Positions 24,873-27,789 of a stretch of 64,000 nt of DNA are shown one piece after another; position 1 is the stretch's first letter, and each line of letters starts with the position of its first letter. The notes below the pieces were generated by a model. It was not told where the DNA came from and ran no database searches. It was given only the letters and a program-made list of their open reading frames with translations. Source of the DNA: Francisella tularensis subsp. holarctica (lineage in GTDB: Bacteria; Pseudomonadota; Gammaproteobacteria; Francisellales; CACEW01); contig CAMCUU010000004.1 in NCBI GenBank assembly GCA_945879065.1, positions 73 through 64,072 of the forward strand, given 5' to 3'. The position numbers and the translations under genes are program-made.

Positions 24873-25619
24873 ATGGCCGAAGCACTTCAATCTCATCAAT
24901 CAGGTAAAGCTGAATTTACCTTGCATGCCGTCGATGCGTATAACCAATATGTCGCTGGAAAAATGCGTAAGGCGCGTGGTTTATCTATTTATCAAGGAAC
25001 AGAAGAATCTAGTTCTGAGCATATGCATGAAGAATGTATTAACTTTGTTCGTTTATTTAATCTCCAGTCCCAATTAGGCGCTCCCCGCTCTTATCAGCCC
25101 AGTGCTAACAAGCAAGAAGAGAATAAAAATATTGAAAATTTATGGCGTAGTGCAGATGCCAAAACACAGCAGACTATTCTTCGCTGTGTAGAAATTATTC
25201 ATCGTAAGTATCAAATTGACGTGACCCATGGTGTGAATTTTATTAAAGCCCAGTGGATGGTCGAATGCGGTGGATCCAACGATGCTTTATACCGCCAAAC
25301 GGCTTTGAGAATGTTTAGCTCTGTGACTTGTATTATGTTGACCGCCGCGAGAATCAATGGGGTCAATCAAATAGATACTTGTGATGACCCCAATCAATAC
25401 TGGACTTTGACGGATTTACTCAGCCGAACGGCGGATCCTTCTAGTGGTTTAAGTGCAGAGCGCATTGAACAAGCGCTGGAAAACCAAGAAGACCTGTTGG
25501 CTGTTAAAACAACGCAAAAAACTCAAGAAGTCACGGGCGCTAGAATCTTCGAAAATAACAATTCTGGTGTGAGCAACCAAGCGAATGCTGGTCAACAACC
25601 CAATACAGAAATCGAATAA
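24873..25619 (+). CDS. Hypothetical protein (248 aa) embedded in the T4BSS cluster
   Basis: ATG 24873 ('MAEALQSH'). No TM, no family recognised. Confidence 0.5.
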   Translation: MAEALQSHQSGKAEFTLHAVDAYNQYVAGKMRKARGLSIYQGTEESSSEHMHEECINFVRLFNLQSQLGAPRSYQPSANKQEENKNIENLWRSADAKTQQTILRCVEIIHRKYQIDVTHGVNFIKAQWMVECGGSNDALYRQTALRMFSSVTCIMLTAARINGVNQIDTCDDPNQYWTLTDLLSRTADPSSGLSAERIEQALENQEDLLAVKTTQKTQEVTGARIFENNNSGVSNQANAGQQPNTEIE

Positions 25620-25662
25620 ATAAAAAATTAAATAAATTAAAAAATTCCAGGAGATTTTAACC

Positions 25663-27789
25663 ATGGCCAGTGTGTATAAATTAAGACGAACAGGCGCGCC
25701 TGCACCTGCTGGAGCGGCTCTAGGATCAAGTTTTGAATACGAGGATCAGCTACTGGCTCGATTGCTAGGTGAGCGCTTTGAAGAAGTGCAAAAAGACCCG
25801 CAGGGTCATAAAGATAAAGATGTATTTTTAGTCGATGACTCGAGTGGGCCTCCTGGTTCTCCAGCTCGTAAAAAAATAAATCCAGAGTTAGAAGGCGCTC
25901 TAAAAGCAATGAGTGCACCAGGCGGCACGCTGACAGATGCTCAAAAAGCAGCCATGGATACAGCTTTAGGCAAGCTTGATTTTCCTCTTGAAAAATTAGC
26001 AGCGCTGGAGCAGCAGGCTTACTTAAAAGCCCATGATGATTTAAGGGCAGATCCTAAGGACAAATCGGAAGCCGCTCAGGGTAGAAATATCCGAGTAGCT
26101 GTGGGTGCTCAGCTGGCCTTAGCTCAAAAATTAGAAGGCGCTGCGGATTTTCATAAAGATTTTGCTGATGGATTAGTTAAAAAATTAGCAGATTCAAGCA
26201 ATCCATTGGATGCCCAGCCGAGCTTAAAAGGCCTAGTAGAAGCTTATAAAAAAGAATTAGACGATCATACGGCGAGCAAGGCTGTCGCAGATCAGGCAAG
26301 AGCAGCAGCAGCGCAGGCGCCTACGCCTCCAGCGCCAGCAGCGGGTGCAACAGCTCCAGCTATTCCTGCTGTGACTCCCGCGCCAGACCCCAAAAAACTT
26401 TATGAAAAAGTTAAAGCTTTAGCTGCTGATCCTGAAGTTGGCAAAGCTTTAAATGACACGCCAGCTGGAGATGCCATTCAAGCCAGAGCCAAGGCGGTAG
26501 CAACCAGCAAAAAATTCATCGCTGATCGTTTAGCGTCTTTAACGCAAAAGCAAAAAGAATTGAGCGCTTTATCTGCAAAAGGGGCAATTCAAAAATTAGT
26601 GGGCCTCAATCAGTTTAATCAGAAGTGGGGTGCCATGACTGATGAAGAGCTGGAAAAGGGCGGTCAGCTGGACAAATTCTTGAATGAATTTGACGATGTT
26701 AAAGAAGACCTTCAGGAAGCCAGAGGAATCCAAGAACGCCATGAGAACTCCGTCGGTCGTGGTCAGGGCGGTGTTTTAGTCCAAAATGGAAAAATCTCCG
26801 TGGCGGATGAGAGCAATAATCAGCAACCGCCGATTCAGGGCATGCTGATGTTTTTTAGAAAATTATTGGGCGCTGGAAAGATCACCAATGTCGATACCCA
26901 ACAGGCCTTGCAAACCTTGAATAAAGTGGTGAATGGAAATCCTCGCCAAACTAAAGGTGCTAATACCGAGTTGGTTCTGATTGCTGGGCGCTTATTAGCC
27001 GTGTCTCCAGATCAGTTGCAAAAATTACAAAGCGCAAAAGGGGGGCGTTGGGAAAAGTTTAAGCAAATTTCAGCCCGTGCCGCTTACGGAAATTTTAAAG
27101 GTCCAGGCATTGAGCAAGATCGTATTTTTACTCAAAGGCATTTAGAGAAAGCGCTGGGTGCGTCTGAGGGAAAAAAAATATTAAATCCAGCGAATGAATT
27201 CGCGAGTGAGCATTGTCCTTATAAAGATCAAAAAGAAAAAGAGCGTTTATATTATCGCTGCGCACTTTTAGAAGGCGACTCTTTATGCGAGCGTCTTGGT
27301 ACAGGATTTACAGGAAAAGACACAGCAGCCAAGTTCGTTGCATCAGCAGCAGATTTGGTGGATTTGCATCGGATGAAGAACCCGCAGGATTCGGTGGGTT
27401 TTACGATGACCAATCCCGTGGCGCCAACGCCAGCGGCTCCAGCAGCTCCAGCTCCAGCGGCTCCAGCAGCAACTGCTCCAGGTGCAACGGCTCCAGTAAC
27501 TCCAGCTCCAGGTGCAACGGCTCCAGTAACTCCAGCTCCAGCTTCCACCATTCCTGCTCCAAATCCTCCTGGGGCGCCGACTCCAGGTCAACCTCAGGGT
27601 TTTCTTAGTCGTGTAGGGGTCTCTATAATGGATGGGGTTCATACTCTGGGTCAAGGTTTTCGCGAAGGGGTTGCAGGGCTAAATGAGGGTTTGCGTGGCA
27701 GGCCGCCAGCTGCTCCAACTCCAGCTCCAGCTCCAGGTCAACCTCCAGGTCAACCTCCAGGTCAAGGTCAAGCTCCAGGTCAAGGATAA
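25663..27789 (+). CDS. Hypothetical Ala/Pro-rich protein (708 aa) embedded in the T4BSS cluster
   Basis: Long ORF with coherent coding. Visibly GC-richer than its neighbours. C-terminal 'PGATAPVTPA' x2 (30-bp repeat at 27479-27538) and 'GQPP' repeats. Confidence 0.6.
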   Translation: MASVYKLRRTGAPAPAGAALGSSFEYEDQLLARLLGERFEEVQKDPQGHKDKDVFLVDDSSGPPGSPARKKINPELEGALKAMSAPGGTLTDAQKAAMDTALGKLDFPLEKLAALEQQAYLKAHDDLRADPKDKSEAAQGRNIRVAVGAQLALAQKLEGAADFHKDFADGLVKKLADSSNPLDAQPSLKGLVEAYKKELDDHTASKAVADQARAAAAQAPTPPAPAAGATAPAIPAVTPAPDPKKLYEKVKALAADPEVGKALNDTPAGDAIQARAKAVATSKKFIADRLASLTQKQKELSALSAKGAIQKLVGLNQFNQKWGAMTDEELEKGGQLDKFLNEFDDVKEDLQEARGIQERHENSVGRGQGGVLVQNGKISVADESNNQQPPIQGMLMFFRKLLGAGKITNVDTQQALQTLNKVVNGNPRQTKGANTELVLIAGRLLAVSPDQLQKLQSAKGGRWEKFKQISARAAYGNFKGPGIEQDRIFTQRHLEKALGASEGKKILNPANEFASEHCPYKDQKEKERLYYRCALLEGDSLCERLGTGFTGKDTAAKFVASAADLVDLHRMKNPQDSVGFTMTNPVAPTPAAPAAPAPAAPAATAPGATAPVTPAPGATAPVTPAPASTIPAPNPPGAPTPGQPQGFLSRVGVSIMDGVHTLGQGFREGVAGLNEGLRGRPPAAPTPAPAPGQPPGQPPGQGQAPGQG

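Follow-up and report, generated by a model that had tools for sequence, protein, structure and literature searches.

What do two genes of no known family contribute to a secretion system when they fill the slot that holds icmN and icmM in Legionella-type Dot/Icm loci? The two genes, which we call X and Y, lie between dotL and icmL in a stretch of 64,000 nucleotides (positions 73 to 64,072 of contig CAMCUU010000004.1; hereafter the window). Based on Pfam, NCBIfam and precomputed annotations, the segment from 17.5 to 37.8 kb of the window is a chromosomal locus for a type IVB secretion system (T4BSS) of the Dot/Icm kind. The carrier is an uncultured Thiotrichales/Francisellaceae-like bacterium. 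In a scan of DotL with one genome per species, the locus grouped with metagenome-assembled genomes of uncultured "Thiotrichales", "Francisellaceae" and "Gammaproteobacteria"; the nearest species (locus L007) is 85% identical in DotL. The distance is larger for Piscirickettsia, Fangia, Cysteiniphilum and Caedibacter, and larger again for Legionellales. A reading made from the letters alone (the sequence-only reading) had pointed to two soluble, family-less open reading frames (ORFs) in this slot. Both are present, and neither has a transmembrane (TM) segment or a match in Pfam, NCBIfam or the PDB. We found that X and Y keep a fixed position next to each other while diverging far faster than the apparatus genes around them. 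We tentatively propose that X is a binding partner or chaperone of Y and that Y, rather than being a core part of the machine, is an accessory that is secreted, exposed to the host or facing substrates.

Synteny and divergence of the X-Y pair

All five relatives of X lie in the dotL-icmL gap, with a Y homologue next and icmL directly after. In all seven loci that have either gene, X and Y are adjacent, often with overlapping or near-abutting stop and start codons, and the X-to-Y spacers range from -1 (overlap) to 43 nt. Y homologues are present in the sister strain (81% identity; 697 and 703 aa in its two assemblies, L002 and L087), in L003 (768 aa; BLASTP E 1e-25, 25% identity over ~570 aa) and in L005 (871 aa; BLASTP E 1e-17, 25% over ~570 aa). 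Using hhalign, we also detected Y homologues in L007 (779 aa; 97.8%, E 6e-13) and in L089 and L090 (547 and 514 aa; 91-94%, E ~1e-7, matching Y aa 360-548). The pair is thus found in L002, L003, L005, L007, L089 and L090 and is kept down to 78-80% DotL identity; therefore, it is not a recent insertion, a possibility that the sequence-only reading had raised.

The sequences of X and Y are far less conserved than their position. Between the window and L005, amino acid identity is 95% for DotB, 94% for DotL, 94% for IcmW, 92% for IcmS and 90% for IcmL, compared with 51% for X and 25% for Y; between the window and L007, it is 85% for DotL, 44% for X and 21% for Y. The nonsynonymous divergence (dN, Nei-Gojobori) between the window and L005 is 0.044-0.056 for core genes, 0.53 for X and 0.77 for Y, and the corresponding values for L089 versus L090 are 0.062-0.094, 0.63 and 0.82. 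Relative to the apparatus genes, X and especially Y evolve at ~11-17 times the rate, the dN of Y being ~16 times that of core genes. With the synonymous divergence (dS) of the neighbouring genes (about 0.9-1.4) as the yardstick, omega (dN/dS) of Y is ~0.6-0.7.

One explanation for such genes would be that the region is recent foreign GC-rich DNA, or that it consists of decaying, non-functional ORFs left after the loss of genes of the icmN/icmM type. X and Y are orphan proteins, the nonsynonymous rate is near neutral and, as the sequence-only reading had remarked, Y is GC-richer than its surroundings (GC content of 0.485 against 0.394 for the window, rising to 0.586 in the Y tail), all of which would fit this explanation. 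However, the GC excess is confined to codon positions 1 and 2, and GC at position 3 (0.336 in Y, 0.255 in the tail) is the same as or below that of the neighbouring genes (0.32-0.46); the excess is therefore due to Ala (GCN), Pro (CCN) and Gly (GGN) codons and not to foreign DNA. Moreover, intact Y ORFs of 514-871 aa are found in every lineage although dS exceeds 1, and the ordered segments of Y evolve with an omega of 0.10-0.27 between strains, which argues that these are functional genes that are loosely constrained in sequence and not decaying. Together with the deep synteny and with the conserved promoter-like boxes and ribosome-binding regions described below, these observations make foreign or decaying DNA a highly improbable explanation.

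A comparison with the sister strain gave a view of this divergence over a short time scale. Over 22 kb, the window and L002 hardly differ (most genes have a dS of 0-0.01), and the divergence is concentrated in Y. Within Y, dS is 1.39 in aa 45-85, a value inflated by the alignment of low-complexity sequence, and 0.52 in aa 176-265, while flanking segments have a dS of 0.05 or less; the tail has a dS of 0.20, a dN of 0.28 and an omega of 1.39. The divergence extends into icmL (dS 0.16, dN 0). The rise of dS in discrete blocks indicates that alleles were imported by recombination. The Y tail also changes by slippage of its repeats: the exact 30-bp tandem duplication coding for two copies of PGATAPVTPA, which the sequence-only reading had placed one base off its actual register, is absent from both L002 and L087, where a different repeat, of the PAPVVA type, is found. 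L002 and L087 are ENA and JGI assemblies of the same strain; their Y tails differ by exactly one 18-bp PAPVVA unit, which reflects either real population heterogeneity or an assembly collapse.

We also compared the dotL-icmL gap in sister clades with the common gene order DotC-DotB-IcmT-DotL-[gap]-IcmL-IcmS (14 loci tabulated, window included). Directly before icmL (before icmM-icmL in loci of the L012 type), 13 of the 14 loci have two genes that encode a small TM-less protein followed by a larger TM-less protein; the exception is L017, with just one gene, of ~145 aa, in the gap. The smaller proteins have 132-268 aa and, in 12 of the 14 loci, a pI of 4.6-5.6; the larger protein has 257-871 aa and, in most loci (L014 excepted), a tail rich in S/T/P/G/A. 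All Y homologues and positional analogues have a disordered tail, and the tail sequences are unrelated. These pairs turn over as fast as X and Y do. At 92% DotL identity (L089 and L090), the small and large proteins are 37% and 26% identical; at 91% (L013 and L015), 63% and 25%; and at 87% (L012 and L013), 48% and 27%. At 86% (L008 and L009), only a 43-aa match remains in the small protein, and at 85% (L011 and L044) the small proteins are 32% identical; the large proteins gave no hit in these last two comparisons.

These patterns bear on whether Y alone might be a conventional translocated effector encoded within an apparatus operon, with X an unrelated apparatus or regulatory protein and no partnership between the two. 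Y is fast evolving and repeat bearing and has a disordered C terminus rich in small and polar residues, a candidate effector with a Ras/Roc-like domain is also encoded beside the locus, and dot/icm regions of Coxiella contain effector genes. Against this explanation, X and Y strictly co-occur as neighbours wherever either is found, the small-plus-large pairing recurs in sister clades, and ordinary effectors are seldom kept at one operon position over such divergence. We therefore regard a lone effector as distinctly unlikely.

The gaps of the sister lineages (L008-L016, L044, L089 and L090) also hold genes for two-TM proteins of ~145 aa, DotA-like multi-TM proteins of ~1100-1230 aa and secreted proteins of ~300-490 aa. 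Homologues of these were not found within the 64 kb of the window; because a DotA-like homologue is among those missing there, dotA must lie elsewhere in the genome.

Predicted properties of X and Y

The ATG start of X is backed by gene callers and by the orthologues; an alternative TTG start at 24846 would give a protein of 257 aa. X is acidic (pI 5.4) and predicted to be all-helical, with a polar disordered C terminus that closes on acidic residues, and it has no TM-like segment (maximum Kyte-Doolittle 19-residue mean of 1.19). The family shares the conserved core motif CV.I.H.K[YF]..D..HG ... D.

Y likewise has no TM-like segment (maximum Kyte-Doolittle 19-residue mean of 0.93). Its N-terminal ~572 aa are mainly helical and broken by Pro/Ala linkers, and a disordered tail of 136 aa follows. 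Both compositional features named in the sequence-only reading are there: an Ala/Pro tract at aa 217-243, and a GQ/P tail at aa 692-708, where Y ends in GQPPGQPPGQGQAPGQG. A beta-hairpin is predicted at aa 371-380 in a low-confidence model, and the tail includes a short amphipathic island at aa 646-677 (27598-27693). AlphaFold2 models of X (mean pLDDT of 35.8, from a 4-sequence alignment) and Y (40.1, from a 2-sequence alignment) are unusable because the alignments are shallow.

Neither protein could be assigned to a family or a fold. Searches of X and Y against Pfam and NCBIfam gave no family match, and all members of the two families gave only sub-threshold noise; searches against all PDB chain sequences with phmmer and with profiles gave no match, type IV coupling protein (T4CP) chains included. 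Homology to proteins outside T4BSSs, which would have pointed away from a role in secretion, was likewise not found. A similarity of Y to the SAP region of FAN1 in the PDB search (18.7 bits, E 0.006) was taken as chance helical similarity, and a ubiquitin-like (beta-grasp) domain was rejected because Ubiquitin_2 matched only one of seven members (L089), over 30 of 86 positions and with 21.9 bits, below the cut-off of 23.1. An exhaustive HMMER search with the X profile against 1.84 billion cluster representatives returned five proteins in all. Word-indexed searching of 5.8 billion proteins returned nothing beyond the same species, except that X also had matches in two other lineages; word-indexed searches were swamped by low-complexity words and for Y returned only the near-identical strain, and such a search with N-terminal alignment added nothing further. 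A metagenome scan with the X alignment found two loci, both already known; neither X nor Y had a tblastn match among 72,556 plasmids, and an Rfam scan of 24500-28100 gave nothing relevant.

X and Y are also not divergent forms of the proteins that might be expected near this slot. Based on hhalign and hmmsearch, we ruled out similarity of either protein to IcmQ, IcmN, IcmS and IcmW, to the orphan families f145, f187 and f410 of the gap and to the DotA-like family f1159. In hhalign comparisons, X and Y had a probability of 0.1% or less against a 30-sequence IcmN profile, with no OmpA match in Pfam, and below 1% against a 29-sequence IcmQ profile, and an IcmQ-like gene was not found in the locus; the X family had a probability of 0.3% or less against the IcmS and IcmW profiles, and true IcmS and IcmW are encoded downstream. 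The NCBIfam model IcmM_DotJ matched only the IcmL ORF and neither X nor Y. IcmN/DotK and IcmM/DotJ occupy the same slot between dotL/icmO and icmL; however, IcmN is an outer-membrane lipoprotein and IcmM a small (~90 aa) inner-membrane paralogue of IcmL, whereas X and Y have neither a signal peptide nor a TM segment.

Soluble, lineage-restricted proteins encoded next to dotL raise the alternative that X and Y belong to the type IV coupling complex as accessory subunits in the cytoplasm, functional analogues of LvgA, DotY and DotZ. In this case, docking on DotL, DotM, DotN or IcmSW would tune or widen effector recruitment, and the Y tail would serve as a fly-casting tether. LvgA, DotY and DotZ are also lineage-specific in Legionella, soluble and TM-less, and they accompany DotL, DotM, DotN and IcmSW; their genes lie outside the dot/icm operons. 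X and Y, for their part, lie between dotL and icmL-icmS-icmW in the same orientation. In addition, the parts of the Legionella machine that recognise substrates (IcmR, the DotL C terminus and DotM's cytoplasmic domain) evolve fast (PMC6761968). Nevertheless, X and Y have no sequence similarity to the chains of solved coupling complexes, and Y is far larger than LvgA, DotY and DotZ and largely disordered. Moreover, in a comparison in which Y has 25% identity, the proteins on which it would dock have 90-94%, and a stable stoichiometric interface would normally constrain at least one surface; the strain-level recombination mosaic is also more typical of exposed proteins. Altogether, we consider a role in the coupling complex somewhat unlikely.

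A possible chaperone-client pair and its precedents

Returning to the possibility of a chaperone and its exported or exposed client, X and Y would be a co-expressed pair and the local form of a hypervariable two-gene cassette that recurs immediately upstream of icmL in this Thiotrichales/Francisellaceae type of Dot/Icm system. X, as the small, acidic, helical and less variable member, would be dedicated to binding Y, in the role of a chaperone or adaptor. The secretion system would treat Y as a substrate, or Y would be an accessory facing the host or substrates; examples are an early substrate, a translocated one and a flexible tether. We speculate that the function of Y would be set by length, helicity and disorder rather than by exact sequence, which would explain its near-neutral evolution, its recombination between strains and the gain and loss of tail repeats by slippage. 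The X-Y interaction, the secretion or exposure of Y and any link to DotL or IcmSW are parts of the model that we infer.

A small acidic gene directly upstream of the gene for a larger partner is the layout of icmR-icmQ, virE1-virE2 and chaperone-effector pairs of type III secretion systems (T3SSs). By analogy, the closest precedent appears to be the IcmR/FIR-IcmQ pair of Legionella, in which the gene for a small acidic protein also lies directly upstream of its partner inside a dot/icm operon, both proteins are cytoplasmic and without an enzymatic family assignment, and a fixed position is combined with extreme turnover (for the present pairs, 37-63% identity for X and 21-27% or undetectable identity for Y, compared with 85-94% for DotL). 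The two pairs differ in that the slot described here is upstream of icmL and not of icmQ, neither protein has homology to IcmQ, and both members vary, the larger one more, whereas Legionella IcmQ is about 70% conserved. X is also 2-3 times longer than IcmR/FIR proteins, and Y has long Pro/Ala-rich disordered regions. A second set of analogues comprises VirE1-VirE2, class I chaperone-effector pairs of T3SSs and the YscP/FliK "rulers", which resemble X-Y in having a small acidic protein followed by a large one, tight coupling and a place in an apparatus operon, and in which the large partner, like Y, has repeats, is Pro rich and is poorly conserved in sequence; here the likeness is one of layout alone, with no homology. 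We know of no component of a T4BSS that is comparable to a chaperone-substrate pair or a ruler.

Rapid change at a fixed position and mosaic evolution both have counterparts in Legionella. Of the Dot/Icm proteins there, IcmR evolves fastest; it is unrecognisable outside the closest species, and unrecognisable genes take its place at a fixed position (PMC6761968). High recombination in DotA, DotG and IcmX has been linked to host exposure, while DotB, DotO and IcmSW are invariant (PMC6761968). Y resembles DotA, DotG/IcmE and IcmX in its intragenic recombination mosaic and repeat variation against a background of conserved DotB, DotO and IcmSW; however, those proteins are membrane or periplasmic members of recognisable families, whereas the predicted location of Y, unless it is secreted, is the cytoplasm, and Y diverges much faster.

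Several observations weigh against our proposal for X and Y. With 206-268 aa, members of the X family are larger than classical secretion chaperones, and the invariant His, Asp and Glu residues of X could instead have an enzymatic or metal-binding role. The near-neutral evolution of Y could also be that of a weakly constrained cytoplasmic scaffold, and the extreme C terminus of Y (GQPPGQ...) has no Glu-rich block of the kind found in many Legionella effectors. The case for recombination comes from two strains and includes the inflated dS value given above. Finally, hhalign and hmmsearch detected no homology between the sister-clade pairs and X-Y, or between sub-clades, such that the view of all these pairs as the same cassette rests on position, size, charge and composition. 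Turnover of the pairs is so fast that lost homology between sub-clades is expected, and the cassette may be one ancient module or one that has been repeatedly replaced.

A broader form of our proposal is that the pair is a hitherto unrecognised functional module across the whole T4BSS branch, consisting of a dedicated chaperone and a disordered, repeat-bearing protein exported by the machine itself. The exported Y-type protein would then be an early substrate, a gatekeeper, or a ruler-like or host-contacting component, and under host-driven diversifying selection and recombination it would evolve beyond sequence recognition within a lineage. We regard this generalization as doubtful.

Dot/Icm systems are known almost wholly from Legionella and Coxiella and, to our knowledge, icmR/FIR, the one hypervariable position-fixed gene in those systems, is still unexplained. 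The carriers of the T4BSS branch described here, which are probably symbionts of freshwater protists, form a separate uncultured branch that keeps a different hypervariable module, of two genes and at another fixed site. The label "unknown" on the genes in this slot hides a conserved architecture that is invisible to sequence-based annotation. If X and Y are a chaperone and an exported or substrate-facing protein, the pair would show where in the machine adaptation to hosts or to effector repertoires takes place, and comparisons of it would help to explain the rapid evolution of such modules; as a module for an exported protein, it would be a two-gene counterpart of the IcmR/FIR puzzle of Legionella.

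Putative control elements and surroundings of the locus

The spacers on either side of the pair are largely unalignable among relatives, and each retains one conserved block (Table 1). Upstream of X, the promoter-like footprint GATCCGCTTGAAATCTAG...CGATAGT is the sole conserved block in the dotL-X spacer among the window, L002, L003, L005 and L007, and a 15-mer of it is unique in the window. Upstream of icmL, the 23-nt box AAAATTGAGTATACTCACCGGCC is identical in the window, L002, L003 and L005 and recognisable in L007, while the remaining spacer is unalignable; the box is also unique in the window. The TATACT+caccggcc element that the sequence-only reading had singled out is thus a phylogenetic footprint, and the suggestion made there that icmL may have its own promoter gains support from this block. 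The footprints support separate control points, putatively promoters, at X and at icmL. Ribosome-binding regions are conserved as well. A near copy of the palindrome GAGTATACTC within the box, GTGTATACTC, is present at 29490-29499 in the divergent icmW-icmK spacer upstream of icmK, and the two sequences may represent a shared promoter or operator element of the locus.

The hairpin that had been noted 3' of Y is real but weak; it has no T-run and is not conserved in L002, in which a different small hairpin is found. An intrinsic terminator after Y is ruled out by these features together with the modest z-score. In L003 and L005 (in L005 at 13520-13550), the box before icmL is followed by a terminator-like GGCCTG-TTTTT-CAGGCC hairpin and a run of eight T. 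The hairpin, degraded in the window, may serve between Y and icmL as an attenuator or a terminator.

Table 1. Genes and sequence features of the T4BSS locus in window coordinates
Feature	Position	Strand	Remarks
IcmC/DotE-like protein	17492-18481		329 aa
IcmD-like paralogue, first copy	18537-18974	+	
IcmD-like paralogue, second copy	19076-19504	+	
DotD	19570-20073		
DotC	20070-20966		
DotB	21001-22119		
IcmT	22094-22366		
DotL/IcmO coupling protein	22406-24703	+	Pfam TraG-D_C; NCBIfam TrbC_conju 3.7e-109
Promoter-like footprint upstream of X	24779-24812	+	-35-like TTGAAA at 24786-24791
Gene X	24873-25619	+	248 aa
Gene Y	25663-27789	+	708 aa
Internal Ala/Pro-rich linker of Y, AQAPTPPAPAAGATAPAIPAVTPAPDP	26311-26391	+	aa 217-243, within the strain-variable mosaic segment aa 176-265
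Most widely conserved part of Y	26770-27306	+	aa ~360-548; sole region alignable with the L089 and L090 homologues
Disordered C-terminal tail of Y	27379-27786	+	aa 573-708; P/A/G/T-rich (P 24%, A 19%, G 15%)
Exact 30-bp tandem duplication in Y, PGATAPVTPA x2	27478-27537	+	inside a 15/30-bp periodic array, 27430-27542
Periodic repeat coding for the (P)GQ(P) C terminus of Y	27712-27785	+	6/12/18-bp period
Hairpin 3' of the Y stop codon	27800-27830	+	8 pairs, 15-nt loop, -12.6 kcal/mol, z = -1.48, no T-run
Box upstream of icmL	27834-27856	+	10-bp palindrome at 27840-27849 and TATACT -10-like hexamer, then GC-rich segment
IcmL/DotI	27885-28505	+	NCBIfam IcmL_DotI_only 3e-51
IcmS	28526-28849	+	family models
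IcmW	28874-29320	-	family models
IcmK	29563-30561		
IcmE	30548-31948		
IcmG	31996-32973		
IcmB/DotO	32960-35971		
DotM	36070-37176		
DotN-like protein	37214-37795		193 aa

Housekeeping genes flank the locus: those upstream encode oligopeptidase A and a histidine kinase, and downstream there is a gene for a radical-SAM enzyme. The gene for the kinase, a HisKA/HATPase_c sensor kinase (16321-17358, - strand), abuts the start of the T4BSS locus, and the same arrangement is found in L002 and L005. This kinase is a candidate regulator of the secretion system; we saw no adjoining response regulator gene. Just past the other end of the locus, a gene at 38952-39806 (- strand) encodes a candidate eukaryote-like effector of 284 aa that has a small-GTPase domain of the Ras/Roc type (Pfam Ras 3.7e-9, Roc 3.2e-8).

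Repeats and duplications are also found elsewhere in the locus. The tandem IcmD-like paralogues (145 and 142 aa) share an almost identical membrane core, VVTLAGILLAFRGVIHLKQHAHGSPQEKHLPKGIANI..., and have divergent ends, which suggests a recent duplication or gene conversion; their IcmD/DotP-like label is based on a weak match to Legionella-type loci. IcmE has an (SGSN)5 repeat as well as a long stretch of low complexity that is rich in Asn and Ser (30850-31000); the ENA copy of the contig (L001) departs from the window by an indel that starts in this region, and the sister strain L002 differs there too. The icmB-dotM spacer (35970-36055) is filled by a long T-rich periodic repeat, with units such as TTTTTTATTTATTTTTA, and is the most strain-variable non-coding stretch, with 73% identity and 40 gap positions in comparison with L002. 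Three genes downstream of the T4BSS locus, one resolvase-like and two for ATPase_2/AAA_16 (archaeal-type ATPase) proteins, at 40008-40640 (+ strand), 42829-44133 (- strand) and 58171-59598 (- strand), may be remnants of mobile or defence elements.

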